A stretch of 60,881 nucleotides of DNA, filler included, from Hausera hauseri (Eukaryota), in assembly GCA_046269625.1 (NCBI GenBank). It is 10 parts of 10 records of this genome, joined end to end, with 100 filler letters (N's around TTAATTAATTAA, not from the genome) between each part and the next. Parts side by side here need not be neighbours in the genome. Positions count along the whole stretch, not along the records: positions 39,433 to 47,923 come from JBJURY010625441.1; 9 more parts are not named here. One strand, given 5' to 3'. The notes under the pieces are model-generated. The model searched no databases. It saw nothing but the letters and a program-made list of their open reading frames with translations, and was not told where the DNA came from. Position 1 is the first letter of the stretch; the number at the start of each line of letters is the position of its first letter. Below, piece by piece: positions 1-47,923 of the stretch. The position numbers were made by a program, and so were the translations under genes.

Positions 1-549
1 GACGAGAATCGGATAGATACAATAGGAATTCTAGTCCATATCCTCCAAGAGACCGAAATCAAACCCCTTCTCCCAGACCAAATAATAATAATAAGAGATA
101 TACCCGACCATCGGATTATAATTACAGACGAAATGACTCACCGATTAACAGGAATATTTTTTCATTTAGATATGACAGAAATACGACACTTGAATATCCT
201 AAATATTCCAATGAAAGAAAGTCGGACTCAACAATATCACTTTATAATAGTTCCACAATAGAAAAAGGAAACTCTCCAGACAATAGGAAAAACAATAACG
301 ACGAACGGAACGTTTCACTCCGTCGTTCAGTAACCTTCAGTGAATAAACTAAATTGGATTTCACGGGTTTATTAATAGCAAAACCAATAGTAAAGCACAA
401 CCAAGTTGTATCCAGACTATCATCTAACATTTCTATTTTAAAAAGACCCTTTACAACTAGAAATTACTTGGACCAAGCGAAAAGAAAAGTACCAGATATC
501 CAGAAAAATACACTCACATACATGTTATGGCCAGAAACTGAAGAAATCA

Positions 550-900
550 AAAATTTGCTTTTAACCTTTGTACCTGTGAATAAAAAACTATCAATGACGA
601 ACAGGAATCAGAAATTAATCAAATAAGGATAGAGAACATCGAAGGTGATTTAATAGTCGAATTAAAAAACGTATACCTGGAAAAGGAAAAATGTTACAAA
701 AACCTTAGACAGCTATTCTGTGGAAAACTTATTGTTGGAATAGATCTTCCATGGTTACTTAAACAAATACAATTAAAGGAAACAGATGTCTTTGGTACGT
801 TTAGTGTAGATCAGAATTTCAACCTACCATACGATCAATGGAAAAGAGAAGGTACATTATCATAGCAACTAATCAACTTCCGAAAAGAATATAAAATTAA
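550..900 (+). pseudogene. Degenerate ISG20/REX4-like (DEDDh-fold) exonuclease domain, copy A
   Basis: Frame from 602 reads EINQIRIENIEGDLIVEL...LRQLFCGKLIVGIDLPWLLKQIQL, resembling ISG20 [17 protein letters not shown]...[22 protein letters not shown]. By-eye alignment. Confidence 0.5.
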
Positions 901-1386
901 ACTAAACCGTCAGGGGTCTCCATATTATATTTCTCCAAGCAGACCCTTATGTAAATATGAGACATTCTCAATAAGAAATAACATATAATACCACTCTGAT
1001 TTCAGAAGCAACATTACAGCGTATGGATATATATAGTTTAGAATTGGGATAAAATATTGGCTGACAGGAAATCTAACCGGATAGAGTTTACAGATATTGC
1101 CGAACAAGAGTTAATTTGTATGGAAGGTATTGAGAAAAGTTATATAAAGAATACCGATACCCAGATTAAAAGAAATGGCCCACCATGTGGTACAATTACG
1201 AATCAAGGAGAAGCACGGTTACAAATTAATAATAATACGGTAATCGTGTCTAAAGAGACTATGATACTTCTTAATTATCCCTATGAATGAGATTGTCAAA
1301 TTCAACCTTTAGATAACTGCCAGATATACTTAATATAATTGCTTAAGGAAACACCCTTGTTAACTATGGATGAGCCCGTAATGCAA

Positions 1387-1818
1387 GACAGAGAAGTAAT
1401 TCTTACAGGTAGATGTATAACTAAAGGAGACTAGAAAGGACTTACTCAAGTCACCGACAAAAATTTAAAACGAAAAACAATTCTTAACATTCATGTGTAT
1501 CCAAATATACCAGACACCACAAAGTATACTGAATACAGTAGACGGTTTAATCCTCAACGATAAGAGTCGGTAAGTGAATTTATGAATAAGTATTTAACAG
1601 GAAAAATAATCATCGGACGCCAGTTGCCAGAGATATTAAATATATTGAGAATAAACCCAAGAAATCTAACAGCTATCTACGATCTGGGACAGACCAACAG
1701 AACCTACAAATGTTTAGACCTATATCATAATCATAACTCAGAAATTATGGCACAAAGATGTCTAGACGAATATTTAAAGACAGTACGAGTAGAATATAAT
1801 ATACTCTGGATAATATAG
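1387..1818 (+). pseudogene. Degenerate ISG20/REX4-like (DEDDh-fold) exonuclease domain, copy B, catalytic acids absent
   Basis: One frame with two internal stops: DREVILTGRCITKG..KGLTQVTDKNLKRKTILNIHVYP..TTKYTEYS..FMNKYLTGKIIIGRQLPEILNIL..AIYDL..HNSEIMAQRCLDEY. It is collinear with ISG20 [76 protein letters not shown]. Confidence 0.6.
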
Positions 1819-2504
1819 AAAATTAGAAAACATTACGAATAGCTTTTCCAGCAATAAAAAACTAGAGAAAACTAAGGAATCAAGAACAATTCCGGCAACT
1901 GAACCAATAGCTCAAAGACATCCGGACATGGATTCTGATGAATATTCACACGAACCTGTCAAAATAAGATCAAGTGGAGAATGGATAGAGCCCTATAATG
2001 ATAGATTAGTCGCACCACTTTCACAACCAAAAGTTCCACCTCAGCAACCGACTTTATTCGAGAATATTTGGGATACAATACAGCCGAGTACATCCAAAAA
2101 GGAACATCAAGTAGTCGATGATGATGAAATATTTGAAATTTTAGAAGATGACGAACTCATATCTATACCCGATCTAATTCAATACCCCGATGCTATGTTG
2201 TTACCAATCGAAAACCCAAAAATTATTCCGGAAGTGAATAATCCAGCAGGTTCTATACTATAAGCGAATCTCCAGAATCAGTAATAGAAATAGTTAAAGC
2301 TAAATTACAAATGGCTGATTCAGCACCTAATGAAGTATGGAATGCTTTACGACAATATGAGTTACTACCATTAGCTAGTAAAACAGAATGTGCATCATTA
2401 CTCTTACCACTAACAAAAGATGACGTATTTTGTTTTACTGCGGCACGAAAGTTGTTAAAACTCTGGGAAGAGATCTAAGACGAAAACACAGAAGAAAACA
2501 ACCA

Positions 2505-2735
2505 CATATTCTAAATATAAAAATTAAAACCAATAAGCGGGAACAAGTAATCGAAGTAACAGCAGGAATGTTCACTAAATTCACAGACCTCCGAAGGAAA
2601 GTGTTAGACGAATTAGATCTTGAAACTAATATAATAGCAAAAAACGATGTCTACGGCAGATTAGCCGTCGAAAATGATTATGTTGTAGACTACGGACTAC
2701 TTACCGGAAAAATTTACCAGATTACTATGGAAATT
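2505..2735 (+). CDS. Ubiquitin-like (beta-grasp) domain within retroelement polyprotein ORF 2430-3248
   Basis: ILNIKIKTNKREQVIEV..FTKFTDLRRKVLDELDL..VYGRLAVENDYVVDYGLLTGKIYQI follows the ubiquitin pattern (two strands, helix, [15 protein letters not shown]-like segment). Same position relative to env as the UBL in contigs 6 and 8. Confidence 0.5.
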
Positions 2736-3420
2736 GGTACAAAGAAAAAGGGAGGAAGACCACGAAAATTCGATTTTAACCCACTAAGTGATGATGAAGA
2801 AAATCCTAAGGAAGAAAAAACGGAATGGCAAAGTAAGAAAAGATCTTTATCGCGAAAGCGTAGCGAACAACGACAAACATTAGAAGACATATTATATGAT
2901 AATTTCCAACGATTCACTATTAGTGATGATGAAGATGAGCAAACACAAGATCCTGTCCCGAGAACATCGGCTCAATGCGAAGTAAACGTACCAAATGTAA
3001 CACTGACAACTCAGGAACTTCTGGAACAGTTAATCAAGAAAGCCAACCCAAAGCAACTTAAAAAGATACCAACAATTACAACAATTCCACTACAGTCCAT
3101 AACAGAAACTGCTAGAAACTTTTCATCACAAATTATGAGATTGTTGCAAAAATATGAACTAAAAGGTGGATTAAATAAAGCATTGACACGATTACTAAAG
3201 GAATGTGATCAAGATAGACTACTAATGGCATTAAGATGCAGTGGTTAGTTTTAAAAATCAGACAGAGGTCGATGCCAAGTTATATCATATAGTAAGGAAT
3301 CTAGCCTATCATATGGACAAGTTAACGAAAGAATAAGTAATAAAGCAAGGAGGTTGGGATGAAATCCTCAAGAAATTTAATCCTACCACATTAATATACA
3401 CCAAGGATACCAATATTTCA

Positions 3421-4240
3421 GATTGGGTAGTACAAATCGTTTGTTTATTACATTTAATAGCCGTTATTAGCCTAAAAACTACGAAAGCATTAGAAGCTTA
3501 TGATTGTTCCAGACGGGAAATAACAACCAGACTTTCACTAGATATAGATAAATGTCAAAACGCAAATCCAATATCAGTAAAGAAAGGTCTTTATAATTAT
3601 AATTTGTATCAGAGAATCAGTTATCAACAAGTGCAAGTAAAGGAATGCCAGGTTAATAAAGTAATATTCGCTTACAACTGTAATCATAATTCATGGAATT
3701 CGGTAATTATTCCACCAGGATTACCAAAACCTGCAACAATAACTGCCGAAAATTGTAGAAAAGCCAGATTCAATTCATGTAGGATTGAAGCAGCCAATAC
3801 AAGCAGGCATAGCAAACGAATTCACGCACGAATAGTTACAGCCGGAAAAATATGGCTCAGATATGAAGGAGGTTGTGATGGAGAAAAAATAATGATAAAT
3901 GGGCAAAAGGAATCCTCAGTAGTACAAATAGAAGATTTCACTGTCACCATAAAAGAATATAAGGTAAACTTTGATGCAATCACAGGGAAAATGTTAACAG
4001 CACCATCTTGTACATATTCTGATGAAGTATGTACTTTGGCAGAATCTATATTGGTTTGGGAAAAACGGTTGTGATATGTCCATTAGCTCTCCTTAAACAA
4101 GTATCCATGTATGAAATACAAGGAGATTTGTACTACGATGATGATTATTCAGAACACGAACGCAATCATAATATAAGTTTACCTACCCCACGATCTTTAA
4201 GACAAACATCTCTAAAACTTTTAATGTCCTCACAATTATA
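3421..4240 (+). pseudogene. Chuvirus-like envelope glycoprotein, N-terminal part
   Basis: Internal hydrophobic signal-like stretch, then LEAYDCSRREITTRLSLDIDKC..LYQ..VQVKECQV..YNCNHNSWNS..C..GGCDG..CTYSDEVC..LVW. This cysteine pattern is typical of chuvirus-type glycoproteins and their endogenous relatives. Confidence 0.8.
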
Positions 4241-4359
4241 GTCTGTATCAAAGAATCAGTTATCAACAAGTGCAAGTAAAGGAATTTCAAGTTAATAAGG
4301 TAGTATTCGCTTATAATTGTGGTCATAATTCGTGGAATTCAGTAATTATCCCACCAGGA
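4231..4359 (+). repeat. Diverged second copy of glycoprotein segment ~3592-3720
   Basis: 38 codons align without gaps; 8 codons differ synonymously and 3 change the amino acid. Confidence 0.9.
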
Positions 4360-16570: not shown

Positions 16571-16620
16571 TTTATCATAAATTATATTTAACATATCAAA
16601 AGAGGAAAGCAGCAATTTAC

Positions 16621-19865: not shown

Positions 19866-19977
19866 GTATAAATGTACTGTATAAATATGTAAACATTTTC
19901 TTTTAAATATTTTTGTATATGTTTTATCAATAAAAGTCTTAAATCTCTCTTATATTTTATTACTTTGCCTATGTTCC

Positions 19978-23600: not shown

Positions 23601-23869
23601 AAACTCCTTCAACCATTCCTGTTTCTATTTCTGTTTCTGCACCTATTTCACCTTCTGTTTTTTTTCTTTCCCCCTTACAACCTCTATTTCTGCTCTTTCG
23701 CCTATTTCTATTCCTTCCTCTGCCTCTACGCCTATTTCATATTCTATTTCTTTTCCAAATCCTGCTGCAACCTCCACTTCTACTAATCTAACAGTCTTTT
23801 CTTCCTTTTCTTCTGCATCTCCTTCTCCCTTTCCAGATTCGTCTTTTCACGACACAACACCTTACAGGA

Positions 23870-25600: not shown

Positions 25601-25949
25601 GATGTATACACTCCCACAGTATCCTCCTTGTACTTTGAAAAATCCCTCTATTAGTGGATGAACAACTGATTTTTAAATCAAACAAAAACCACGGCAAATT
25701 TAAACACTTACACTGTTCCAAGCCCCAGCTTTTTCTACAAGAAATTCAAAATTGACACATATTTGATCCTTAGGTCGTGGAAACTGTTCANNNNNNNNNN
25801 NNNNNNNNNNNNNNNNNNNNNNNNNNNNNNNNNNTTAATTAATTAANNNNNNNNNNNNNNNNNNNNNNNNNNNNNNNNNNNNNNNNNNNNTTATTTATTT
25901 TTTATTTACAGTTAGAGTTAGAATTTGAAACAGGACAGTTATCCTGTTC

Positions 25950-28900
25950 ATCGTTAACGAAGACTGCTGGCTTAAGATTAAAAATGTGTACATTTTAAGG
26001 TCTATTCTTGCGTAAGATAGTGGCCGTATGCAAAGAAAAGTTGAGTAGTTTATAAGGTCCAGCGCATTGAGGCCGAAAAACCGAAGGCGATGGATCCTTC
26101 AGCCATACAATCTTCGCTGAGTATAAGTCCTCAGGAATATAAGATTTGTTTTTATTTATAACATGGCAAAAGGCATTTGAGTTGATATCAGCAAAGTGGG
26201 ACTGTGCCGCACGATTAACGTCATCTGATGGAGTTTCATTGAGACTGTAGAGCTAAAATAGTGCACGAATTGGTGTCCCAAAGAGAGCTTCAGCTGGAGT
26301 ACAGCCTGTGGTGGTGGATGGTGTGTTGCCAAGTAGAAATGAGGCCCAGCCTCGATTGTTATTTGCCAGAATATTCAGGGAAATTTTCATGGTACTTCGA
26401 AATCTCTCAAGAAGACCATTTACTTGGGGATAATACGGTGTGGTATGAAAGTGGGCTATCCCAAGGGCTTCACCAGAGATATAAAAAGATCAGCTTCAAA
26501 TTGCGAACCCTGGTTCGTTATTATGTGACGTGGTGAACCAAAACGACTGACCCATATTTTGATAAAGGCATCTGCTATTGAGTCGGTATTGATTAATCGT
26601 AGAGGAAGGGCTTCCGGCCAGAGAGAAGCGCGATCCATCATGGAAACGATGTATTGATAGCCGTTGTCGGATGGCAAAGGACCGACAAGATCCAAATGCA
26701 CAGTGTCAAAACGGGACGTACAAGGGAAGTGGTAAATTGGTGGCTTGAGGTGTTTATGGACCTTGTATTGCTGGCATGCTGCACATCTTTTAACCCAGAT
26801 CTGTACATCTGTACGCATAGTTGGCCATACAACGTAGAGTTGCAGTAGACGAAATGTGGCTTTTGAACCCAGATGATGAAGAGAGTGAAAGTAATTAAAA
26901 GCTGTCTTTTGTAGCGATGGAGCAAGAATGATTTTCTTGTTGGTCGAGTTGGAAGTGTCATAAGCGATGCCATTGGTGATTTCAACAGATTTAAAATCCT
27001 GGAGAATAACAGATGATGGGTGCTTGCTTTTCAAGACCTCAGAGGAGAAAATTGGCCGAACTGTAATTGAGTTAACCGACCGTGAAAGAAAATCCGCTAC
27101 TAAATTTTCGGTACCTGAAATATATTTTATGGAAAAACTAAACGTCGACATGTATGATATCTGTCGTTCTTGTCTGGATGAGGGCTGTTTCACAGTCATT
27201 ATGTGAAGTAGAGGCTTATGGTCGGTGTAGATGGTAAATTGACGTGAAAGAAGCAAGTGCTTGAAATGATTTACCGCTAGAACTACAGCTAAGAGTTTAC
27301 GATCGAATGTTGAGTATCGGCTTTCCGGTTGCGTTTGGCTTTGGAAAGGCCAAGATTTCCACAGTTTTCAGACCTTCACGAAGGCGATCAAATTAATTTA
27401 GTAGATCGGGAGTTTAATGGATTAATTGTCTTTTCTTCCATTATGAGATGTATGCGAAATGTGCCGTTAGTTCGCAGCAGTGTGGCACGTATTTTTGAAC
27501 GAAATGCAATATGCCTAGAAAACTCTTCATATCAATAGTAGTAGTTGGCAACGTCACACTTTTTAACTATTGTAAACGATCAGGCTGGGGCGAATGCTCT
27601 TCGGGATTAGTTATGTTGCCTAAGACGTTGACGCGTTTTTGAAGAAATTGCATTTGGCGAAATTAATTTGCAGGTTGCTTTGGAGAAATCTGCAGAAAAT
27701 AATTCTAAGGTGCTCGTGATATTGTTTGATAGAGCTGGAAGCGACTAATATGTCATCTATGTATGGATCAGAAAAATCAAGTCCAGAAAGAACGGTGTCA
27801 ATGTGGCGCTGAAAGGTCCGAAATGCACTACGTAGGCCGAAAGGCATGAAGATGTATTTGTAAGGGTCAAATGGTATGATGGCAGCAGTTTTTGGAATGT
27901 CATCAGGGGCAACAGGAATTTGATGGAAGGCCTTGTGCAGATCAATGGTACAATAGGTATTGGTGTTGTTGAGGCTATGAAGGATATCTTTAATGAGTGG
28001 AGTCTAGAGACAAGAATGAATGAGGCATATCATGAAAGAAAACAGCTCCAGTGATTGACAAAAAACAACTGACATCGCTACTGTCGACGCCTAATTTGGA
28101 TTTTTGTTTTAGAATAGATTTATGATTTTTGTTCATAATTGAAACATTACCGACTTTATCGGGAGTTTTTTTATAGAACACAAGGCGTTCAACATGTTCA
28201 CAGAAGAGTGCAATGAATTGCTCGCTAAGTTGTCTATGAGACACATGCTTCAAGTTGCAATCGAGTTCCTGCTTAATAGACAGCTGTATTTGCAATCTAC
28301 CAATAAATCACATGCGGCAAGAAAATCTGAGCCTATTATGGGAGATTTAATGTTGTCCACGTGGAACTTCCAGACAAGCTTATCTGGCAAGTTTGCTAAT
28401 GTGAAAGTCAGTTCCGTGATTCCTGCAACGTGCAACGGTTGACCACTGGCAATGAAAAGCGGTGGATAGGAAATCATAGTCTATGTAGGAACAAAGGATA
28501 AGGGGAGGAGCGAAAAGACAGCTCCTGAGTTTATAAGGAAGTCGATATATGAAGTATCTCTGCATAACAGTACAGCTTCCAACAAAAAGACAGCAGAGGA
28601 GGTGTTAAAATGGTCAGAAGTTTGAGCAATATTGTTTGCGCCACAATGTTCCATAAAATCTGGCGGCATTTTTAGTTTTTTGAAGTTTTTGGAGAAAAGG
28701 AATAAGAGGAAGAAAAGCGAGGAGATTTATTGTTGTAATGTCTACAACCGGGAACGCATGATCTAGCCTGTGACTGGAACTTATTTTGGTAGACACAAAT
28801 AGGGTTGTTCATAGCGTACCGTTCGCTGTACAACCGACAACCCAAAAAGCATTTCCTAGCATCCCTTCGAAATCGCGTGTGATAGAATCAAGTCATGCGT

Positions 28901-30449
28901 CCGCCGGATAAAATGGATCGAACAGAGTTTCTGGAAATGCTTCTCTCCTTTGAAGGTCTGGTTTCACTTTGTCGAGGCCCACTAAGATTATTTAATTGGG
29001 TAGTAATGGCCGAAATCGACTGTTGTAACTTGTCAAATTGTTGCTGCATCTTTTGCAATTGTTGAATAAAAAATGTTGTTGGAGCACATGTGGTTGCATC
29101 CGCAATAGGGAGAGAACTGTTGGTATGAAAAATCTGAAAGGATTTATCAGCCATTATTGAAGTTTTTTGATAGTAGTGGATTCATCGACAACGGTTAGTA
29201 AGGCTCTGATTGAGGTGGGCAACGATGACAAAAAATAACGGTGAATTATATCCGCGTTATTCGTAGGTGTCACTCCTAGACCAGTATGCTGCAGAATGGC
29301 GTTTTGGAGAAAGTCGGATGGCTTTTGGCTTCCTATCGCGTGGTCGTTAAAATGCTTTTGTATTATACTGTCAATCGAAGGATCCGTGATATGCAGTACA
29401 GCTTCATAGAGTGTCTCGCAAGGTGTCGAGGATTGTAGCAGCTTGGAGATATTACTAATCTGCTACTTGACGTTGGCAGGCAGAAGAATTAAAAGGCTAT
29501 TGGCTCAAGAAAAAGAATCACTAATGTTGTTCGATTTTAGCCACTGTTGATGGAATTGGAGCCATGGTTTGCTGGAATTGTTTTTGTCGAGGAAAAATTC
29601 CATACAAGGTAAATTTAATGAACCTTGTAACTGTTGGAAGTGTGGCAAACGATAGACGTTGCCTGTATTTGTGGGTTCGTCATCCGAGAAGGATGGGTTT
29701 GAATCCGATCCACCTCGAAGGCGAAAATGGAGCACCAAGTGGATAACTGGACGTTTGTGGCATGTGAAAAGCAAAAGGGAGTTGGGAGGATGTGTTATAA
29801 ACCTTTGATATGTGAAATAGAAATCGGAAATATAATATGATGAGGACAAAGCGTTATATAGGCACTGTGCTGTCTCGTTGAGTGGAGCTTTTAAGGTTGT
29901 AATGTGTTGATTGTAGCTAAAGACCAGGAAAGATAACTGTAATGAGGTAATTCCAGGGAAACGATGAAATGCACGTGGGGCTTTGATGGTTACCTTTTGG
30001 GTTAAGAAGCGGTTAGAGCGTACAGCCGGGAAAGTAGTGGTAAGCATTGATTGTAATAAAAGAATATCCTAGATTTTTGAGCTTAAAAGGTTTTCAAAAT
30101 TGAGTTTGGTGTTGGCCATAAAAGATTTGTGAGAGCGCAAAAAATGGTCGTACTGGTGGGCGCAAACAATTGAAAAAAACGTCACACACCTGTGTCCGAA
30201 TGTAGTTTTGCTGAACGCAGTGACAGCATTTTCATTGTAACCAAATATCGACAGTGTGCTTGCAACATGGAATGATTGCGCTAAACCGAAATGTTCACCG
30301 TGTGAACTGATCTGTCTTCGCGGTAAGAGGATATCAGTGTCGGCAATATCGGAGGATATTGGTGGACCCAGATTTTTCTGAGATCGTCCAGCGTTAGTCA
30401 TTCTGCCTTGAACGTCAAAAACTGGCGTAGGTCTTTTATTCATAGCTTT
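25950..30449 (-). mobile_element. Ty3/gypsy retrotransposon, decayed: extended ORF1 (unknown domain, UBL, Gag), PR, RT, RNase H, integrase
   Basis: Gag GSQKPSDFL..YFLSSLP..MADK and knuckle remnant FYHTRFRRDARKC..GC; protease FLINSGAVFSLLP; RT LHKAFHQIPV, MPFGLRSAFRTFQR, YIDDILVASS; RNase H YSTFDRKLLAV..YTDHKPL; integrase HSLHHLG..CAACQ..VHLDLVGPLP..WPEA; AGPYKL. Confidence 0.95.
29709..29936 (-). CDS. Ubiquitin-like domain ending RLRGG, fused in frame upstream of Gag
   Basis: Residues 38-113 of ORF 29505-30047 (76 aa): LSFLVFSYNQHITTLKAPLNETAQCLYNALSSSYYISDFYFTYQ...VIHLVLHFRLRGG, against ubiquitin ...TLHLVLRLRGG. Confidence 0.75.
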
Positions 30450-30549: not shown

Positions 30550-30892
30550 CAGTCAGTAGATTTAAATTCTAACTGCACATTCACACACAACATCAAGTGC
30601 ACTACCGATTGCACCCAATCCCAAACCCTAATGATCGGTTTTTGATTTTTCGAAAATCCAATATTATTGATTTTTGCACACTTGCACTGTGCACCAGTCG
30701 AAGCACCTCGATGTGCTCTATCGATGAACACTTTGTTCCTATCGATTTGATCAGTAGTACACGGTGCAGCGATCGATAAGTAAAAAGTGCAAAGATGTGC
30801 ATAGCAACGGTGCCTAGCGGTCGGCACATGTGCAAAATCGATTTATCGATTATTCCCCGGGGGTGAGACTGAACCGCCATTTTCACACCACT
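30550..30892. repeat. End of an unclassified interspersed repeat, homologous to 21283-21577
   Basis: Shared sequence as above; ends CCACT followed by ATATATAT. Confidence 0.85.
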
Positions 30893-30959
30893 ATATATAT
30901 TTTTTAAGTGTTCTTCTCGGTCTAATAATGTCAGTCTTAACGAGTGCGGATGAGGATAT

Positions 30960-33900
30960 CATTTTGGCATCTTTTGATCTTCTAGATCAATTTCATCATT
31001 TCAGCCAGGATTTTTCTGAAGCGGAATAGTTAATCTCAAGGCTTTAGCTTTACCAATATCTTCTTCGTCTTTAGCGACGACTGAACTACAGCGGCAAAGT
31101 AGTTCGTAAAAACGACATTGTGATTCCGGTGAGAATTTAGTATCGACGTGAGGTAGAAATTCGGCACATGTGTAAGGTTTTTCTTCAATTGTTATCGATG
31201 ATACTCTATACGTGTGACTCAAGTTGGTATTGGTGTACAATTTCATTGGGGTCTGTGCATTATTAGCTATTCTGATTGGTACGCGACCAGTTGATATTCT
31301 CGTTAATATATTACTGAGCACAATGCTTGGGTTTAGCGATTGTTTTGGCTCAAAATATACTGGTTTGTCGTCATCTTGACGGATCTGAGCAGATATTAAC
31401 ATTTCGTTTCTGGGTGGAAAATTTTCATCCACTGGGATCCATACTTCTCCATATTTTTTATCTTAAATAGTTTTAACTCCTTTTATCGGACCTAGCTGTA
31501 TTAATTTTACAGCATGAAAGTCTATGGCTACAGTTGGTAGTTGTCATAACAGATCATATCCTAATACTACATCATCCTTTTACTATTCCATTACTAAGAA
31601 TTAGTCATGATTTATCAGCGATATTTCGGATGCTGTGTATATCAGTGCGCATACTTCCCAATCTTCTAACTGAATTTTTGCAAAGGGTCCACCTTCGATT
31701 ACCGTACCATAGTAATTCGGTGATATTTTGGATGTTGAATCGTTGATACATTATACGTATTAATTCTAACTTCTGTTGCTGCAACTGGTTGGTTGATTAA
31801 CTGTCTTAGTTCTCCATTTGGATACGGTTCATTATTCACACAATTGACGATTTCTGTTTCCTGACTTCTAACTTCTGAGTAATTTTCTTGGTTTCTAAAA
31901 GTCTGCATTTCGTGGTCTCTTGAAAATGATGATCGTATTTTGTTCATCCTGAGTATTTTAGGTGAATAAATTATTCCATGGTCGTCAACTGCTGGACGAC
32001 GATACGAAGCAGATGTTCTTTTTGTTCCGTATATTTTCCGTAATACACCGTAGTGTTTTCTTCCTTCATGAGGATTCTCATAGCTAAACGGATTCCTATA
32101 GATATTCGTTTAATATGAACTCAAATGCTTTCTCACAATCCTCATATATAGGCGCAGTTGACGGTAATATTGGTAACGGTGGTTTTATAACGGAATAGTT
32201 TTTATGTCTATTTATCTTGGAAACAGCGTTTCCTCGCTTAAGCTCGTCATTGTCAGACTTATCTCTTCGTGTTTTTATGTGCATGGATTTGCATTTGTAA
32301 TTAAATGTATTTTGCGTTTTACGTTTTCGATTGCAATAACCAACATGTCATTCAACATCCGCTTTCCATATACTTCCCTTGTAAGCTTTTAGAAAGCTTC
32401 TAGTAATAGGCGTCACTAATCTTGGAATATCCTGATATATTACCGGGAATTCTTGGAAGTATTTGTTTTCTTCAACATTAATAGGTACATCTCTTTTTTG
32501 CATTCATAGGTCAATAAAACTTCTCCGGTCACTCGGCCAAAACATCTTCCTTCATTGGAATTATCGGCTATGCTAGCTCGGAATTGGCATATATCAAAGC
32601 CAGTTGAGTTTTTATGATTTTTAAGTCTAATTTACAATCGTTCGTTATCATTTTGTGGTATAGTTAGGTTATTCTGGCTTGTCCTTCATAATAGAAATAA
32701 TCACGTCTATCTTTAGATAATCCTCAATTCGTATATCTTCAGTCTCAGTCTTGAATGTTTTGACATTTATGTCTGTTTCAACTACAAGAAATGCTTCATA
32801 GTTAGTGGCATACATCACAACATCACATCGTGTAAGTACGTCGTTTTTCACAAATTGTAGTGCATGAGTATCGGAAATTAATATAGTAGGTGTACGTTGT
32901 TCAGCTACGTCTTCTCGCGTTTTCGAGTTTGTTTGCATACTATTTACGTAACGTTTTCCTGACGTTTCGTTAAACTTTACTTCTTTAATTTTGCTAAAAT
33001 TGCAATCCGTCTTGGCTGGAGGTTCGCAAATTACTACTGAACTACTAAAAGCACAAGTGCTGTCTTGAATACGGTACTTGTGGTTTTCAGTGTAAAGTTT
33101 AGTAACGCTATGAAACATCACTTTTTGTGTTCGCATCTCGGTTTCATAGAAGTCCACAACCACTATGGTTGATTCTATTCCTTCAACAGTATCATATTCT
33201 GCACCGTCACAGTCTCCGTCATGCAAATCTAATTTCCCTGCTGCTACTTTAAATGCTCAGATTATTTTTCCTTGCTGCATTTCAAGTTCCATGTCATCCA
33301 ATTACAATCTACCTTTTTCTCTAGCTTGCTTACAATGCTGGCGTCTGGAACTCCTACATACTAATCAGTTTTAGACTTTCGCGTGGCTTTTTCTTTTGCT
33401 TCCTCAGTGGTGACTATTGCCACTATACAATTTGTTTCGTCTGGGATAATCCCAATGTCTATTAAGTGTTCCACTTTGTCTAATATTCTACCTGTCTACA
33501 GTCTATAATTCAATTCGTTTCCGCCACCATTGCTTATTAGGCACTGTTTTGCATCTCTTACGGAGGAGTGCGTAGTAAACTTACATTCTTTTTCATCCAT
33601 CCATTCAAAAGATATCCTTACTTTAATCGTCTCTTCGGGTTTAGTCCTTAAGAATTTAGCATACTCCATTATTAAAAGTTTCGGTACTGCACTATAAATT
33701 GCATTTTTACTAGATAATTTAGTCATAGTGGGAACTAACTGTTTTATCTTATTTTCGATGATGCTTACATTAATTAAGTTAATTAAATCTTTTTCAGTTT
33801 GCGCTGAATCCAGAAGCATCTCCATACTGAATCTCCATGTTAAGGGCACGTCTCTGCTTGGTTCAAATATACTGGAGTTTTCGGATTCTCAGCAACCATT

Positions 33901-34586
33901 GCGTCTAAATTCGCATCCCATTCTGGATTGTTTTAATTCTTTCGTGGTAGGTAATTAATTACTGGCATATCCACTGGTCTGACTGCGTTCGTATCACGTA
34001 TCGATTCACTTAGCTCGCGCAACATTTGTTTCATTTTAACCATTTGTGTCATTCGGAAGCAGCATCCATTGCCGGAAGTTTGATGCAATAATGTTAGAAA
34101 CTAGCATAATTCGTAGGCCTGGATCATTTCTTTTTCTTGATAATTAGTTAATTCAGAGCCTACATCTCTTTGCCATTTTCGCACAAATTGTGATTTTTCA
34201 GCAATTTCTGACTCCATAATGGCATAATTATTTCTATAAACTTCCAATTCTTGGGTTGAATCATCTATTTCTGCTTTTCTTTGGTCGGTGAGAATTTGCA
34301 TTTTCCGAATTTTGCATATTCGGGTCTGTAGCTATCTCATTTTTTCATCACTCATTTCGGCCATTTCGACTAACAATAGGACTAACTTCCTTATCTGTTC
34401 TAAGATTTTATAGTCTGGATCGATTTCCGCGATTAGATTCTTTACGATACTCGTTTCTTCAGTGATCTTCCATTATTTCCGTTAATTTGGTTTGCCATTT
34501 CTGATCAATTCCAAGTATCCAATTAGTTGGATTTTGCAAGAAATTTAACTCATCTACAATAGAGTTCTCATGATCTGAACAAATAT
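30960..34586 (-). mobile_element. Env-before-pol Ty3/gypsy-type element, internally deleted copy (coiled-coil region, UBL ~33630-33410, glycoprotein ~33345-32400, linker, protease ~31690-31480, pre-RT spacer)
   Basis: Collinear with 39433-45920. Glycoprotein GDCDG..CAFSSSVVICE..C..C..YATNY..YECKKRDVP..FQEFPV..VTPITR; protease ALIYTASEISLI; ends at the RT start DIGKAK. Confidence 0.88.
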
Positions 34587-37041: not shown

Positions 37042-39134
37042 TTATATTGAGTAATAGTTGTAAGTCACACTCTGATTTTTCTGAAGCCACTTTCTCTTAT
37101 CGTCGAACGGGTCCAATGCCTTCTTTTTGCTGTTTATTGTCATGAGATGATGATGTTTTGTTCCGATACGCTCCTGGTCGACTGCTTTTCCATGACAATT
37201 ATAATAGTCTTGGGGAAAGTTTTCAAAATGTAAACCTGTTTGCTTCAGATTTACGCCTTTACATTTTAATACGGACTTGGTTTGCATTTTCAACGCATAA
37301 CATTTCGGTCTTAGGAAAATTCCTTTTTTGTACTTGACACTGCCTTTGCTTTCATCTTTAAACTTACCTATAACAGCCGAGAAACGAGTGAAATAAAGAG
37401 GGACACTAGTATCATAATTCGACATATCCAATTCTTCATTTAAAATCATAGCAGGTAAGCGTTGTGATCTTAAATCAACTCCACGGCAGTTGAAAAAAAG
37501 CTATCCGTGTCACCAGCAATGATATTTAATTCACAATTAAACTGGTGTCTATACTTACCCAGTTCTGTGTAATTAAGCTCATACATACGTATCTAGGAAA
37601 GATCAAATACGACCTATCTAGTAGCGCTTATCTAGTGTAACTGTGTCCTTATCAAGGAGAACAGCAACAAGATCATCAGCAATAATGATACTTTCTTTGA
37701 ACTGGGCTTTGCTGGCATATGTTACAAGCCTCTTTGCATTGTTACAAAGCCTCAAATTGGACCGTTTCATCAGATTTTCCACTGTTTTTACATATAAACT
37801 GTTATTTTTGAGCTTTAAAAAGTCCTTTTCAAAAGCACTTTTAGCAGCAGCCCTCTTTGCTGTATTAATGCTGATGTAGTCCTTAAATACATTGCCTTGA
37901 TCAAATTCAACGGCACGATGTACCTTGTCAACTACAGCGCCTAACTTGATGTATAGCTGCAAAGGCCTATAGTGTATAACATAGTTGGACTTTCGCTCAT
38001 ATGCAAGCAGCAATTTCTTTTCCCGTGAACCAGGAAAGCATTGATTAATTGGAGCTAAAGGTAGTTGATCTAAATCATAGTGCTTATCAGCCGGAATGCT
38101 CAAATCAATTTCGAAGACGAGACCACGTTTTTGTGTAACAGTGTCTACAAAAGGCAATTGTGAAATCAGACTGTTTAATTTATCTTCATCATAAATCCAA
38201 ACCAAATTTGCAAATGATAAAGGTTGAGATAAAGTCCAACCGTACAAATTATTCACATCTATATACAAGATAGTGATTCTTTAATCGGTGGTAACCCTAA
38301 GCTTTTTTACAAAAGTCATACAGCCACGAATACCAGATTGCAAAAAAACTATATATTTCAGGATCCTGAATATGCTCAATACGACATGGACTCGTTTTTA
38401 GTGCAGTTACCCAAGACAATCCTGGAATATACACGAAATTAACCGTTTCTAATTCATCATCCAACTTAACCTGCTTCTAAATCGTTCAAAAATATTACCT
38501 AAGAAGTATACATCTAGTTTCATATATACTAACATGTAATCTAAAAGCAAGCTACATCTATATCTTGACCAGGTAAGTTGAGCCTCCTGATAATCACTGT
38601 CACTAATACCATCCCATTTCGGTGGTAATTCAGAAATCGATTGCAAGTCAGTAAACGATTTGGCTGCACTGTATGGAAAAACGCCTTTACTTTAATGATA
38701 TCAGATGGAAAAGCTGTTTCAGTGAATGGATAACATTCTAAATTAAAGGCAAATGTCTTCAGTTAAGCAGGTAAAAACTGAGGCATGTCCAAAAAGAGAA
38801 TTGAAACTGCATTTTTACCTGAACATCGTATCATAGTATGCATAGTGATGAATTTTTCCGTAGTTTGTGGAATACCACTTAATTCCCAACTTCCAAATTT
38901 ACTTAATGCGTGTTTTAAAATATGATTGAGATCATATCCACGCAAATTATGGAACATAACACGTAAATTGTACATAATCTGTTGAGCCAAGTTATATTTA
39001 CTACATTCTGGGCCTAGGAATTTACCCGTAACATGAAAGTGATCTCGAACAAATTGAGAACCGTTTTCATGACAGAGGTAACAATATGTGGCGCTTTTAA
39101 ATCGAAACCATTTAGCTGTTGTTAGTGGTATCAT
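37042..39134 (-). pseudogene. Protein-primed family B DNA polymerase (Polinton/adintovirus-like)
   Basis: CYLC..VRDHFHVTGKFLG (EndoVII-like finger), FHNLRGYD, YMKLDV, YIDVNNLYG, KLKNNSLY, AGDTDS, GKFKDE, LRPKCY, DDKR; many disruptions. Confidence 0.93.
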
Positions 39135-39432
39135 TGGCTTCTTTGCATTTTTATATCAAGGGAAAACCATGCTTTTCACAATTTCCTCTAAACAAGTCAG
39201 AAACTCAACGATGGAATTTTCACCAACAAACTATATATATTAAATACCCGGTGATGAAATTAACAAAAGACCGGCTGCAGCAGGCAAATGAATATGCTTG
39301 GCCTTATCATCAGGAAACAAAACAAATTCAAANNNNNNNNNNNNNNNNNNNNNNNNNNNNNNNNNNNNNNNNNNNNTTAATTAATTAANNNNNNNNNNNN
39401 NNNNNNNNNNNNNNNNNNNNNNNNNNNNNNNN

Positions 39433-42400
39433 CCATTTCGTTTCAACTGTCATCAGAGAGGGGCCCGTGTGCTTTTGTCCTCCTTCTATCTACTGTACAC
39501 GTTAAAGTGTTGTAGAACTTCTTTTACAGCTAAAGTTTCTAATTCTGTAACAAAGTAATTCTTCTCGGTTTTCTTTAGTGATCATCCTCCATACGCGATT
39601 GGATGTTCTAGCTCTTCATCTTCTAGTTTCTGAGCTATCTCATATCCGATGCATTCTTTACTGGCATCCGTTTTAATAATAAACGGTAAGTTAAAATCGG
39701 GATATATTAAGACATGTTCGCTGGTTAGAGTCTTCTTCATTTCATTGAAAAGCTTTTTGTTTGACGTCGGTCCATTTCCACTTAATTCCCTTTCTAAGTA
39801 ATCGGTACAATGGCGCATTTATTTTCGAATTATTTGGCACATAAACCTAGCCAATGTCTAAACTCCTTTTGATTCTGAGGTTCCATGCAATCTGATATTT
39901 TGTTTTGTTTGATATATCCTCCATCTCGATCTATATGTCCAAGATAAGATACTGCATTTTGAGCCCATTTACATTTCTTAGTACTCAGTTTCAATCCGGC
40001 TTGTTTCACTCTCATGAGTGTGTCCTCAATATCCTTTAAATGTTCTTCTTCCGTTTTGACTCAATCATTACTTCGTCCAGGTACGCAAACGCGTGCAGTT
40101 GTAAAGCAATCTTCCTCCTCGATTTCCACTTGCAAGTATCTAGATTGCAAATTTAATGTGGTAAACCAATTTGATCTCGCTAGCCTATCCAGAACTCATT
40201 TTACTGATGATAATTGGAAGAAGTCTTTCATCATAAGGATATTTAGCGCTTGATAATCGATACAAAATCGATGTTTTGCAGTACCTTTCTTTATAACCAT
40301 AAGTATGTGCGAATACCAAGATCTATAGCTTGGTCTAATTATGTCGGCCTTCACCATACGTTCAACTTCCTTTGTTATCTCGGGTCTTAGTGATTGTGGA
40401 GGAGGATACCATTTCGGCGTCATTTGATCTTCTAAATTTATTTTATTATTTGTGCCAAGCTTTTTCTTAAGAGGAATTGTTTGTCTCAAGGTTTTGGCTC
40501 TGCCAATGTCTTCATCGTCTTTAGCGATGACTCAGCTATAACAACAAAGTTATTCGTAAAATCGACAATATGATTCCGGTGAGAATTTAGTTTCGACGTG
40601 AGGTGGGAATTTGGCACATTTATAGGGTTTTTCTTCAATACGTATCAGTGATGATCTGTATGTATGACCCAAAGTGGTATTGGCGTAGAGTTTGATCGGA
40701 GTTGGTGCGTTATTAGCTATTCTGTTTGGACACGACCTGTTGACACTCTTGTTAATACATTACCGATAGCAATGTTTGGGTTTAATGACTCATTTGGCTC
40801 AAAATATACTGGTTGGTCGTCATCTTGACGGATCTGAGCATATATTTACACTTCAGTTCTAGGCGAAATGTTCTTGTCCACTGGTATCCATACGTCTTCA
40901 AATTGCCTATCGTTGGTAGTTTTAACCCTTTTATGGGACCGAGTTCTATTCTTTTTCCTGCATGAAAGTCTATTGCTACATTTGGTAGTTGTCTCAACAG
41001 GTGGCATCCGAAAACTACATTATCCGTTAACTGTTCCATTACTGTGAATTCATGGTGAAAAAATTGTACCATTATGCGAATTTCTAAGTTCCATCGATAT
41101 TTACTTTTCAATGATTGTCCGAAAGCTCCAATACTTCCTGGATCCGTTGTCGAGGCGGATATAATTATTTTCGTAAGAACTGTGTCATAGAGTCATGCGT
41201 TATCAGTGATATCTCGAACTCTGTGTCTATCGGTGCATAAACTTCCAAATCTTCTAACCGAATTTTCGCGAAGGGTCTACCTTCTATTACCGTACCATAG
41301 TTATTTAGTGCTATTTTTGGATGTTGAATCGTTGACACCTTATAGTCGTTAATTGTAACTTCCGTGGTTGCAACTGGCTGGTCTATTAACTATCTTAGTT
41401 CTCCATTTGGATACAGTTCATTGTTCGCTCAGTTGACGTTTTCCGTTTTCTGACTTGTAACTGGTAACTGAATTTTTTGGTTTCTTGAAAATGTTAATCG
41501 TATTTCGTTCGTTATGAGTATTCTAGGTGAACAAAGTATTCCGTGGTCATCGACTGCTGAACGACGATACGGAGCAGATGTTATTTTCGTTTTGTGCATT
41601 TTGCGTAATACATCGTAGTGTTTTGTTCCTTGATAAAGATCATCCATGCTGAATGGTTTTCTTTAGATATCTGTTTGGTATGAGCTCATAGATTCTCTTC
41701 TTTTGTTTTCGAGATAATATCCTTACTATTTATATAACGTTTTCCCGTCGTTTCGTTAAACTGCAATCGTTAAATTGCAATCGGTCTTGGCTGGAGGTTC
41801 CCAAATTACTACTGAACTTCTGAAAGTGCAAGTGCCATCTTGATTATAGAACTTTTGATATTCAGTGTAAAGTTTGGTAACGCTATGAAACATCACTTTT
41901 TCTGCGCGAATCTCGGTTTCGTAGAAGTCTACTGCCACTATGTTCGGTTCTAATTCTTTTCAAGTATCATATTCCGCACCGTTACAGCGTGCGGTATGCA
42001 TATCTAGTCTTCCTCCTGCTACTTTATATGCTCTGATTATTTTTCTTCCTGCATTTCTAGTTCCATGCCGTCCCATTTCAGCCTGCGTACCTGTCTCTTT
42101 AGCTTGCTTACAATACTGGCGTTCATTGGAATTGGCGGGGTCGCTGACTTGACTGTAGATGAATGTCCGTGTATTAGTCCACAATGGAAGATACTACGAG
42201 ATTGTCGCAACATACTATCAATTCCATCTAACGGAACTAGTTCTCGTTGTTGGTACAATATGTAGTTTTTCTCCCTTGTTTCTAATTTATGCGGTCTTGC
42301 ATTGTCGCATATTTTCAAATCCATTAAATGAGTATTTGTGGCCAAGTTTAAACGTGTCGCAGTCGTATGTTGTAACAGCGCCCATTTGCCTTATTAACAT

Positions 42401-45400
42401 CATGACAATTAGAAAGTTAACTAGCCAGTTCGATTCGTTTCCTTGAGTATTTCCGGTTAGGTTCCCTAACTTGTCCTCAAGTCTACTATTGCTATTGCTA
42501 GATGAAGGTCTATTTCGACGTTCTTTTTCTATTTCAATTAGTTTGGACCAGTTTACGTCTCTAGGTATTTTTCTGGCGGTTTTTCGCGCTAAGCTACTGG
42601 CTCTTTCAAAGTCATTTTTTCGAGTTGGGTTGGTTTTAATGGCCATGTACAATAATACTTTTCTTAATTCTTCTGTATTATTCTCTATTATGATTTTTTT
42701 ATCACTGTTTCATCGGTTAAGATGCTTTTCGATAATCTACAGTGGAAATTCCTTGTTGTTCTGGTTTCATTATATATAGATTTCTCTTTTTCATCTAATA
42801 TATCGCAAGAAAGACTAGAATGGTTTACTATGCGTATCAAATTATTCATAAGTTCATTTAGCTCTTCATTTTCAGCACTGAAAGTAGGTATGGACATTTG
42901 TCTTAATCCCCTAATCAAGTCGCCATTGTAGTTGATTTCTTCTCGAATTTTTCATGGCCTATAGACAGGGCGTTTCTGTTCCGTCATAACTGTTACGGCC
43001 CCACTGGGTGGTACTAAGTTCTTATCATACTGTTCTTTGTCTTCGTTTGTTGCTAGGTATTCTTAGTACATTACTACATATCGAACTCCCATAACTCGTT
43101 CCACACACTGATCAGTTTTAGCCTTTCGTGTGGCTTCTTCTTTTGTTTTCTACGTAGTGACCGCTGCTACTATTCGATTTGATTCGTCTGGGATAATTCC
43201 GACGTCAAGTTCGTCTAATATCTTACCTCTAAACTAGAGTCCATAATTTAGTTTATTTCCACCACTATTTCCTATTAGCCACTGTATTGCATCTCTTACA
43301 TAGCAGTGTGTAGTAAACTCACATTCCTTTTCGTCCATCTATTCAGATGGCATCCTTACTTTAATCGCTTCCTCGGATTTCGCCCTTAAGATTTTAGCGT
43401 ATTCCTTTACGGCATTATAAATTGTACCTCGCTAGATAATTTAGTTAAGGTAGGAACTAATTCTCTTAGCTTATTTTCGGTAAGGTTTACGTTACTTAAC
43501 CTAATTAAATCTTTTTCAGCTTGCGCTGAGTCTAGAGAAATTTCCACACTGAATCTCCGATCTGGCAGGCACGTCTCCGTTTTGTGTAAATATACAGGAG
43601 TTTTCGGATTCTCCGCAATTACTGCATTCAGATGCGCATTCCATTCATTTTCATTTTTGGGCAGTCCAAAATCAATTATCGGCGTTTCTATTGGTCGTAC
43701 TTTGTGCGCATCCTTTATAGATTCTCTTAATTCGCGTAGCTTTTGTTGCATTATACACATTTGTGTCGTTCGTCAATTTCCGGATGTTTGATGTAATAGT
43801 GTTAGCAACTGGCATAATTCCCCGGCTTGGATCAATCCCTTTTCTTGATATTTAGTTAGTTCAGAGGCTATGTCCCTTCTCCATCTTTGCAAAAACCGTG
43901 ACTTTTCAGCTTTTTCCGTCTCTGTAAGAGCATATTTATTTCTACAGATTTCGAGCTCTTTGGTTAGTTCCTCTAATCTTATCGCTCTCTGTTTGGTTTT
44001 AATGCACGTTTCTTTTACTTGTCGCATTTGAAGCATTAATTGTCTTATTTTCTCATCACTAATTTGCCATTTCTACAATTAGTAGTGCTAACTCATATAT
44101 CTAGGTAATAATTTTCGAGTCTGAGTCTATTGCATCAAGCAGTTTCTTAACAAGCTTACCTTCCTCAAGACTGAGACGGTGGCGTTTTTTATTTTTGTCA
44201 TTACGGTATGACACATTTGATCTGTCCCAATCATCCATTCTTGAATTTTGTGTAGGAATTTCATTGCTTCCCCTATAGCTGATCAATGTTCTGGACAAAT
44301 ATCTGAAGTTTCTGGATCCCGAATTGAGATTTCATCGATAAGTTTAGCTGTCAAATGTTGGATTACTTCTAGGCGAATGTTTCTTAATTTCGGATAAAAT
44401 TTACAAGTCATCTTCTGCTTTTCTATGAAGTTTCTTTCTTTGATCATTTTATATATATCCTCCAATATTGTCATTTCTTGTTTTTCTTTCATAAAGTTTA
44501 ATTGACGTTATGCATCAAATTGGGACCTGATATCTATTTCCGCTGTCATTGTATCTAGATTTCGTGAGTTTTTTTACTAGTTGTTTCTTTACTTGAGGCT
44601 CGCTTTCTGGAAATTCTTTTATACGGCTTTCTACTAGTTTACTCACATCATTATTACTCTGGACCATTTATTTAATTGACTAGCGATTACTTGTTTTCCA
44701 GTATTGCTTTGTCTAGCATTTTGTAAGCATCTTCCATTTCATCACATGGACCTTTGTTGAAACCAGTGATCTGGTTGAAGTAGTTGAATTGATCTTTATA
44801 CTCGTCAAATTTAAGGATACAGGCCTTAATTACATTTCGGGTTTCGTCATTGTTCATGTGCATAATTCTATTCCTCAAATTGTTTATTTGCAATCTTTTT
44901 TCGGTTTTAATCTTAATACCATTTTCCAGACATATATTGTTTCGATGCGGTGGAAGCGATTTTTATCATCGCCATTAAGGAAGGAATATCTATTGAGTCT
45001 ATTCCTAACATTTCTAGATCAATTTCGTTTCGTTTTTTGATCGGTTTTTCATCGAGTTGCTCAACCATTTCGAATCTAATTTCATTAATGACGCGATCTT
45101 TTTAGTTTCGGTTTGGCTTCTAATGTAGTCAATAATGTTTGGGCTTTTTTATTCTTACTTTGACGTCCTCTGTGTATTTGTTCCATGCCTCTGGAAATTT
45201 GACTCCACTTTTTATCCACGTTTCTAATTCGTGTTTTTATTTTGTAAACGTTTCTGGTGACACTTCCTCAGATTGCTCTAGGTCTATAGCTTCGCTTAAT
45301 TTTCCTTCACTACATTACTTCACTTTTTGTATAATCTGTATACAAACTGCTGCTGTTTACCAGAAATGTCTACGTGGTAGCCCATTTCTTTAAGTTTCTC

Positions 45401-45920
45401 TAGATTCTGGTGAAATACTTCCGTGTCGAGGCAAGTAATTCTCATTCTGTTTAATTCATCGGCATTTTTCCACGAACGCCTAATTTTCCACTGTTTATGA
45501 TCAAACCTCTCACTTGGTTCTGTTTCTTCTTCATTAGTAGGTAATGGGCATATATAATTTATTTCATTTATGGAATTGTTAATTCTTCTATTCCAACAGG
45601 CGTGAAAAAATTAATTTCCGAGGTATTCAGACTGAACTCTACATCACTTCCTAAAGAGATTTCAGTTTCTTTCATTTAATTTTACTTTAGTCATCGAAGA
45701 TCGTGAACGATCTTTACGTTTTCGCTTTAATAACGGGCTACGGACTCTATTCTTTGTAATTTTAAGTTTTAGTGGTTCCAAAAATTCTTTTTCTTCGCCA
45801 ACTTCTACAGTTTTCTTTACCTTTTCTACCATATATTCCGGTTCTGAGTCTAAGTTTACTTCATTCGAAGTTTCGGGTTTTTCTGATTTCTCTGTTTCTT
45901 TTCGTTCTTTTCCTTTCTAG
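39433..45920 (-). mobile_element. Env-before-pol Ty3/gypsy-type element: long coiled-coil ORF, UBL (~43370-43150), chuvirus-like glycoprotein (~42445-41720), protease (~41300-40950), RT (~40500-39830), RNase H (~39730-39500)
   Basis: NYGL*FRGKILDE (UBL); NWLVNFLIVMML..TTYDC..FHCGLIHGHSS..CNGAEY..CTFRSSVVIWE (glycoprotein); APIDTEFEISLI (PR); RFCIDYQALN, AYLDEV, LKLSTKKC (RT); PDFNLPFIIKTDASKECIG, ELETLAV (RNase H). Confidence 0.9.
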
Positions 45921-46010
45921 ACAGATCCTCACTACAGCATACTGTCACTGCTGCTCTTCCTCTCAGATTCTCCCTTAAACACAAAGTGATGCAGAAACGG
46001 CAGCAACTCA

Positions 46011-46341
<331 letters not shown>

Positions 46342-47589
46342 CTAAAGTGAGTAATGCAGAGAAAAGTTAGAGAGACTGGTTTATGGGAATACAGTGACAG
46401 TATTGACAGACAATCCTGGTCAAACATATCCTCTTGACAGGGCCGTGCAGAGACCTCTAAAGGGGCAGGGGCTCAAAGTAAAAAAAGGGCATAAATTGTT
46501 CCGACGGTACCGCATTGTAGGGTGGAACATAAGCATGAATCTCACACACCACTTAAAGTTCCAATAGTAAGCATGGAGAGATGAACCAAATCTAGGGGAA
46601 AATAAAATATTTAACACACATGTTAAATATTAACATGTACATACATGTTAAATATTTCATTTATTTATTTTCACTCTGCAGGACTCCTTTCATTATAGTG
46701 AAGTATTGAGATATTTCAAACCTGCACATGAGCAACATATGTCAAATAGAGAGTTAGACCAGCTGACAGATTTTGATCTTACACACAATCCTCCAAGCAA
46801 AAAGTCTGTATTAGTCACACGATCCAACTAGAGGGGCTGAGAAGAGGACTGTCGACCGCGAGGAAAGCCAGAACTCAGGGCAGAGATAACAGCACCTGCA
46901 GCAGGGAGGAGGATGGGGAGAGGTGGCTAACTTATTTTTAGCAACAGAGCGGGTTGGGAGATGGTTATTTAAATGTATTTATTGTTTTTTTTTTTTTTTT
47001 TTTTTTTTACGTCCCACAGGCTCTGCAACATTAAATAAATTTGATTAGAAAACCTGAATTTGAATACATTTTAAATAAAGCAAGGCATCTATTTTAAACT
47101 AATGTTTCATCATATAGGTAATAACTCTTAGGGTGTTTTATTTGACATCACCATCATAGTGCTGGATTGTGTTGCCATTGTTAAGACAACAGTTTACTTT
47201 AATTACTGAAGTGGTTGAGTAACCATTCATAACATTGCACTGATAACTGACGTACGTTTAAACTTTCACTTTAAGTTATTTTTCCAGCAAAATAGGCATA
47301 AAAGAATTGTCTGATGCTCTTATCTAGAAACGTATTAGCCTTGAGTATAAAGTTGTAGTGGCAAAACAGTTATAAGATTATTTAGGATCTCAAGATATTT
47401 TCAAGCACAATTTTTTAACGGTACTTTCCCTGAAAATAAACAACTGTGACTTAACAAACATTACTCCATTTTCCCGCACAACATTTTAGAATCCATAGAA
47501 GAATTATATTATCGCATTGACAACATGTGGTGTTCACAGGTAGTCAAAGGGTCCTTTTTTCATACATCGATTGATTTATACATCATTTA

Positions 47590-47923
47590 CAGGTTGGTCC
47601 AAAATTATAGCAACTTTGGTTTGGCCAAATTTTTAAGAAAATGCAACAACCGTTTATAAATTAATAATCTTTATTGGTTTTCAAACAAAAATAGGTTGCA
47701 TCGAGTTCCTCTCAAGATACTAAAACTATTTCTTCAAATATTCGTTTTTATGGAGTTTTCAGTTAGCCATTGCTTCTCAGACTGTCCAAACAGAATAATC
47801 GAGTGGGTTAAGATCTGGTAAACATGGTGGCCACTCAGAAAAGCTCACAAAGATCGGACAGATTTTGGCGACACCAGTCCTGAACTCGTTGGGCTTTGTG
47901 GTCTGGAGTCCCATCTTGTGGAG
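47590..47923 (-). mobile_element. Tc1/mariner 3' end fragment
   Basis: TA|CAGGTTGGTCCAAAA terminus; minus strand encodes QDGTPDHKA..EWPPCLPDLNPLDYSVW. Confidence 0.85.

Follow-up and report, generated by a model that had tools for sequence, protein, structure and literature searches.

The order env before pol is already in print for planarians and for nematodes, bryozoans and flatworms. In planarians, the giant gypsy element Burro/GYPSM1 (Arkhipova and Yushenova 2019, PMC6431247) is described as having env inserted between gag and pol without a change of frame, within a polyprotein of 4,873–5,140 aa that joins Gag, a SUMO-like domain (PF11976), a BCL2 domain, env and protease (PR) in one chain, with the SUMO-like and BCL2 domains placed before env; ankyrin is also described. 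GAG-ENV-POL gypsy errantiviruses with an ENV of the HSV/gB type are known from Nematoda, Bryozoa and Platyhelminthes (Chary and Hayashi 2026, PMC13524379), supplement 1 of that paper holding 36, 10 and 9 such rows, respectively; according to the paper, these elements are not monophyletic. As related in the same paper, non-canonical nematode ERVs (Sacco et al. 2022, J Gen Virol) are metaviruses that have captured the glycoprotein of an RNA virus and have env ahead of pol, and mosquito BEL/Pao elements carry a chuvirus glycoprotein (Dezordi et al. 2020).

The locus studied here resembles all of these in part. With Burro, as described in PMC6431247, intact relatives of our family have in common the in-frame env between gag and pol, ubiquitin-like (UBL) and, in some of them, BCL2-like domains before env and, in the relative P0118, ankyrin repeats; our family has in common with it the UBL domain before env and a large upstream block without family match. 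The relatives are shorter (3,036–4,057 aa), the MATH, BIR and AIR1 domains of Burro, an element of more than 25 kb, have no Pfam match in the frames of the window, where the copies are truncated, and no Bcl-2 domain was detected in our family. The dUTPase-like domain reported between PR and RT of Burro is unconfirmed here: the homologous PR-RT spacer of the relatives, searched against PDB with that of L002, gave no dUTPase match. All these comparisons are with the description of Burro and not its sequence, and PMC6431247 does not call the Burro env gB-type. As Bcl-2 was looked for and not detected in the focal family, we regard this family as an env-first gypsy family and not as Burro proper. 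The GAG-ENV-POL errantiviruses share the Ty3/gypsy pol, the gB/chuvirus-type env and its position upstream of pol, but they are intact and multicopy, and the main text of PMC13524379 does not contain the word "ubiquitin". The mosquito elements, known to us through that paper, have the glycoprotein family PF24664 in common with ours, whereas RT and RNase H are gypsy-type here and env precedes pol. Since the env-first order is already in print, it is no discovery, and the first-pass annotation was mistaken in calling the clade poorly described; as regards novelty, the refuting condition that this annotation had set for itself applies. What is new is the divergent family and, from metagenome data, a set of compact Burro-like elements with a cassette of UBL, in some cases joined by Bcl-2, that the literature searched describes for Burro only.

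A decayed env-first element and its diverged copy

The window, the whole stretch of 60,881 nucleotides analysed, consists of ten contig pieces joined by linkers of the form N44-TTAATTAATTAA-N44, and adjacency in the window does not reflect adjacency in the genome. The piece at 39433–47923 contains, on its minus strand, a decayed Ty3/gypsy (Metaviridae) element with env ahead of pol (Table 1). RVT_1, PF17917, PF17919 and the env profile agree with its first classification as a Metaviridae-type element with env in front, and Pfam and profile matches bear out the order first annotated on this strand, namely UBL, hydrophobic helix with YDC, glycoprotein, linker, PR, RT and RNase H. Pfam on single focal frames recognizes RT and RNase H only, both in the 3′-terminal part of the element; the sequence of PR, RT and RNase H with gypsy-type RT and RNase H is that of Ty3/gypsy elements.

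Table 1. Positions of the elements, their parts and other features in the window.
Feature	Position	Strand	Remarks
Upstream block, about 800 decayed codons, element-encoded, no family match	43540..45920	−	Stop depletion; contig cover; 3′ part common to second copy
Helical + ubiquitin-like (UBL) domain, split over two frames	43130..43538	−	Helical half E 0.046; second-copy identity
Stretch of about 230 codons, at the position of the Bcl-2-like domain in some relatives	42431..43129	−	Missing from second copy
Internal signal-like hydrophobic helix, then YDC	42359..42430	−	Hydropathy 1.75 over 15 residues
N-terminal third of chuvirus/gB-type fusion glycoprotein, frameshifted, remainder deleted	41765..42424	−	Env profile
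Coding-like linker, env to protease	41330..41690	−	77.8% identical in second copy
Aspartic protease remnant and PR-RT spacer	40466..41310	−	PR+spacer profile (9 relatives)
Reverse transcriptase, its motifs degenerate, interrupted by stops and a deletion	39836..40564	−	Pfam RVT_1 E 5.4e-7; tblastn with intact relatives
Gypsy-type RNase H, cut near contig end	39492..39761	−	PF17919 E 4.3e-23; PF17917 E 1e-15
Second copy, same family	30934..34358	−	Helix+UBL 33813–33418; env middle 33343–32387; linker, PR, spacer; stops at RT start
Copy of a different family	3..4359	+	Gag-tail-like region; block without family match; helix+UBL 2284–2735; Bcl-2-like 3024–3381; signal helix and env start 3442–4232
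Choline/ethanolamine kinase, two exons	45987–46341	−	Directly upstream of focal element
Host site-1 protease (MBTPS1) gene	16414–18000	−	Pfam S8 E 1e-36
Artificial spacers	4360–4459, 16314–16413 and seven more		

The upstream block proved shorter than the more than 1000 codons originally proposed, at about 800 codons from 45920 to approximately 43540. Its best frame holds 1.46 stops per 60 codons against 2.88 in shuffled sequences, and none of 200 shuffles was as low. Neither Pfam nor a Gag capsid profile of nine sequences matched it, the same capsid profile had no match in the 54 frames of the window, and no relative matches these codons; the viral contig search gave one weak match (L001, E = 2e-4). 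Further downstream, the env profile matches two frames, at E = 7.1e-15 and E = 5.9e-11, over its positions 2–221 of 643. The membrane-anchor third is missing, and about 790 bases of env are deleted. The PR+spacer profile reaches E = 4.7e-6, 1e-3 and 2.5e-9 in three frames. Gag, a Bcl-2-like domain, integrase and an LTR are undetected in the focal copy as truncated, the piece ending at 39433 on the RNase H side.

The pieces at 30550–34586 and 39433–47923 align in four collinear blastn blocks with 73.5–79.4% identity. The same order in a diverged second copy had been claimed from the outset; what stands is the collinearity, with complementary deletions, and what falls is the pol part, as RT core and RNase H are absent and the copy ends where its position 30934 corresponds to focal 40384, the start of RT. 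Compared with the focal copy, about 980 bases are gone from it after UBL and ahead of env (focal 43103 jumps to 42122), as are about 140 in the protease. Its env scores E = 4.6e-27 over three frames and covers positions 105–435 of 643, again without the anchor third, and its PR+spacer match has E = 7.5e-24. Env, protease and RT of the copies in the window are disrupted by stops, frameshifts and deletions, and these copies are dead. A short interspersed repeat, present in two pieces (30675–30860 and 21306–21530), lies directly at the point where the second copy is cut off.

Along the focal stretch we found, at 80% likeness, 6,705 contigs of run X1, of which 4,261 were less than 90% alike. They include the env part, and almost none extends past 45957, at the choline kinase exons. 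X1 may be the source of the window itself and its depth is not a copy number; the cover nevertheless indicates that the focal family is old and much repeated and that the upstream block is part of it. Another 540 contigs came from run X2, made in a different study from a different organism; neither run has a contig that reaches across the entire focal stretch. The large env deletions, with the anchor-bearing third missing in both copies, could mean that the family spread mostly within cells and carried env as a decaying passenger, a history that would keep the ancestral order and is compatible with the ancestry favoured below. We consider this rather unlikely, as the two env deletions differ, PR and RT are deleted in places as well, the X1 contigs cover env and the relatives retain full env ORFs.

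The glycoprotein and the intact relatives

With the ORF 3337–4071 of the copy at 1–4359 as query, 49 relatives were found among 1.84 billion representatives, and all 21 of those scanned contained PF24664. The env profile of 643 positions was built from 11 of these 21. In the viral contig search env found no match, and the focal env is 22–26% identical to its nearest relatives. As a sequence profile, env gave 15 weak PDB matches, all to gB (E = 0.17–0.99). The AlphaFold model of the env of the relative P0002 (mean pLDDT 73.8, pTM 0.47) retrieved herpesvirus gB from PDB in all rows listed, with a best E of 1.1e-13 and TM-scores of about 0.3, and chuvirus-type glycoproteins from BFVD, with a best E of 1.4e-39. 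By PF24664, the env profile and this model, env is of the gB/chuvirus (class III) type, the fold being predicted for P0002 and not for the fragments in the window. The viral fusogen expected of the YDC protein is thus matched in a relative, and the description of a chuvirus-like glycoprotein is upheld by profile and predicted fold, although the window holds only parts of it, and neither the focal nor the second copy has the anchor third. A hydrophobic signal-like helix stands just before YDC/FDC in 17 of 17 intact relatives examined and in both ORFs of the window. In these, its placement in frame with upstream coding sequence, as first noted, is confirmed: the focal helix lies within the stop-free ORF 42709–42287 and that of the copy at 1–4359 within 3337–4071.

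Env and RT occur in one ORF in 10 intact relatives: P0012, P0015, P0019 and P0021 (4 of the 21 scanned), the loci L002 and L004 (2 of 3), and P0118, P0119, P0158 and P0165 (4 of 4). Four of the ten are 3,036–4,057 aa long, and all have integrase; CCHC knuckles precede env in relatives. P0118 (4,057 aa) reads continuously through CCHC knuckles, ubiquitin/PF11976, env, ankyrin, PR, RT, RNase H and integrase, so the one-ORF arrangement from UBL to integrase, named at first reading as a point to check, exists in an intact form in this relative, and the proposal that env and pol are expressed from one polyprotein is most likely right. A single polyprotein from Gag to integrase is found in P0118, P0119, P0158 and L004, while the copies in the window are broken. 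The ORF of L002 (3,426 aa) is open at its 5′ end. L003 departs from the pattern in that a single in-frame stop falls between the Bcl-2-like domain and env, before the helix. No terminal repeats were found in L002–L004.

Several of the relatives have additional features. P0003, P0158, P0165 and L002 (2–10282) carry several tandem aspartic-protease domains after env and membrane-protein-like sequence after integrase, and an ORF downstream in L002 (10617–12107) matches RNase T-type exonucleases (E = 1.4e-5). P0021, a retroelement polyprotein of 2,627 aa, is labelled at NCBI as a Flavobacteriaceae hypothetical protein; most likely the DNA is that of an animal and was placed in a metagenome bin.

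The joining of env and pol in the window could in principle be accidental, env coming from an upstream tandem or nested element or from an inserted chuvirus-like fragment beside an unrelated pol, and in either copy the junction is obscured by the broken reading frames, with no X1 or X2 contig covering the stretch in full. Against this, env, linker and PR are collinear in two copies that are 21–26% diverged, neither piece contains direct or inverted repeats of at least 25 bases, no LTR separates env from protease in either copy, as the proposed check for an element boundary had sought, and in the ten relatives a single ORF holds both env and RT. A chance juxtaposition is largely refuted and in our estimate very improbable.

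Ubiquitin-like and Bcl-2-like domains before env

A helix+UBL profile built from five intact relatives recovered five further ones among 19 proteins. With this profile the second copy scores E = 2.6e-11, and with one of 12 rows E = 6.9e-13. A frameshift splits the focal module, whose own score is only E = 0.046 for its helical half; we call it UBL because its DNA is 73.5% identical to 33356–34257 in the second copy, and it is the single-frame reading of that region that gives the 12-row match. A UBL/SUMO-like domain before env is found in the second copy and in that at 1–4359, and in the focal copy by this identity. That the module is ubiquitin-like is suggested by several individually weak but agreeing lines, with Pfam below its cut-off: Pfam ubiquitin at E = 4.4e-5 and PF11976 at E = 0.0015 in P0118, E = 0.0047 in L003, Atlas leads for a ubiquitin fold at 0.80–0.83, and a UBL-Bcl-2 model of low confidence (pLDDT 42.9) for which nearly all Foldseek rows listed are ubiquitin, SUMO and ISG15 (E = 0.012). 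In hhalign with profiles of three to four sequences, UBL scored 16.0 against up to 17.6 in shuffles and became significant only after relatives were added. P0119 has two tandem helix+UBL modules (526–652 and 763–913), and P0118, judged by eye, apparently also two.

A Bcl-2-like domain follows UBL in P0001, P0002, P0004, P0007, L002 and L003, which seeded the profile, and independently in P0118 (E = 1.3e-13) and P0119. Matched against PDB, the Bcl-2 profile A3 gave the Bcl-2 family in all of the best 60 of 119 matches (best E = 0.0097), and Pfam Bcl-2 in P0002 reached E = 0.00096, below the cut-off. Among the Foldseek rows listed for the UBL-Bcl-2 model there was no Bcl-2, hhalign with three- to four-sequence profiles gave no significant Bcl-2 result, and the Atlas value for the P0001 stretch (0.77) was uninformative. 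The profile found no match at focal 43129–42431 or in the UBL-bearing P0003, P0021, P0158 and P0165, and as the domain is undetected in the focal copy and in these four relatives, we regard it as optional in the group. A Bcl-2 profile match upstream of UBL, at 44163–44017, was not accepted (E = 0.2).

The copy at 1–4359 belongs to another family. From the Gag-tail-like region through env it aligns in collinear blocks of 44–71% identity with P0001, a single intact ORF of 1,963 aa, and its stop-free ORF matches PF24664, the Monjiviricetes fusion glycoprotein, at E = 4.9e-17. UBL followed by glycoprotein had been recognized here at the start, and the profiles (helix+UBL at E = 5e-18) and PF24664 support it; the UBL and Bcl-2 profiles were built with P0001 and are not independent. 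The Bcl-2-like domain between UBL and env in this family had been overlooked. The end of this first piece (4223–4359) is an 86% identical duplicate of env bases 3584–3720.

Placement, proposed origin and neighbouring loci

The trees of RT and glycoprotein proposed at the outset give an env-first grouping without firmly placing the focal copy. In the RT-RNase H alignment, whose aligning profile was built from env-first elements, the focal copy spans 240 of 400 columns; the outgroups are 20 representatives of 110 usable matches, most of which come from plants, frogs and a single arachnid genome. Both this tree and the env tree were made without sequences of Burro or of the published GAG-ENV-POL elements. 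The focal RT-RNase H is at most 40% identical to anything compared and sits on a long branch. It groups with the env-first elements with support 90 under LG+G4 and 78/85 under the better, mixture model, computed with 21 of the 33 rows (12 left out). A starred UBL clade of seven relatives (97/100) excludes the focal copy, and constraining the copy to join it gave an AU p of 0.405, so that a joint clade is not rejected, nor is it demonstrated. The env tree is similarly weak and contains no supported sister group. A homologue search with the focal RT retained 0 of 942 candidates at E = 1e-20, a threshold that was probably too strict.

We consider it likely that the focal element, a decayed Ty3/gypsy element with a gB/chuvirus env and a UBL module before PR, RT and RNase H, descends from a Burro-like ancestor with one polyprotein. 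The long RT and env branches and the lack of a supported sister group are also what an independent env-first gypsy lineage would show, one that had gained env and the UBL module apart from Burro and the relatives studied here; the focal copy has no Bcl-2 match, its upstream 800 codons match no relative, and the published GAG-ENV-POL elements are not monophyletic (PMC13524379). Such a lineage is improbable, given that the specific helix+UBL module is common to the family and the relatives, that the PR-RT spacer of the second copy matches relatives of the UBL clade (E = 2e-12 to 8e-7) and not P0012, P0019 or L004, and that both trees place the focal copy, if weakly, beside that clade.

For the Burro-like ancestor we propose a topology because of the anatomy of the elements and general knowledge of viral polyproteins. 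One long ORF would give Gag, accessory domains, Env and Pol. Within this chain, the hydrophobic helix may act as a signal sequence, with signal peptidase cutting just before YDC, and the Env ectodomain would adopt its class III fusogen fold inside the ER lumen. By way of a C-terminal Env anchor the chain would pass back into the cytosol, and there the protease of the element could free RT, RNase H and integrase, while the Gag, UBL and, where present, Bcl-2-like domains, being upstream, would remain cytosolic. The ancestor presumably budded enveloped particles, and the Bcl-2-like domain, in elements that have it, might protect the producing cell from apoptosis. Large DNA viruses carry apoptosis regulators of their own. 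P0118, P0119 and L002 are compact intact elements with the Burro UBL+Bcl-2 cassette in public metagenome assemblies, and they make testable both the production of Gag, a membrane glycoprotein and Pol from one ORF and an apoptosis regulator borne by a retroelement. More tentatively, and at a little below an even chance, Burro may be no planarian peculiarity but a single branch within a widely distributed clade of enveloped gypsy viruses of invertebrates, with a conserved helix+UBL module, often Bcl-2 and a class III fusogen in a single polyprotein, this host having at least two deep families, one with the 800-codon accessory block.

Matched with human enzymes, the first exon of the choline/ethanolamine kinase reaches 62 bits, compared with 41.5 for 1nw1, the C. 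elegans enzyme, and the focal element is probably inside an intron of this gene. The kinase and site-1 protease genes in the window point to an animal host. Another gypsy family has two copies, at 25891–30449 (−) and 21283–24000 (+), with RT, RNase H and integrase and no env match; by eye, the former shows a ubiquitin-like C-terminal motif of the LRGG type just before its apparent Gag. The window contains no Rfam matches. A tandem repeat array of about 10 kb occupies 5974–16313, and two related stretches with 72% identity, at 18939–19867 and 37045–39155, resemble by eye the DNA polymerase B of Polintons/adintoviruses.
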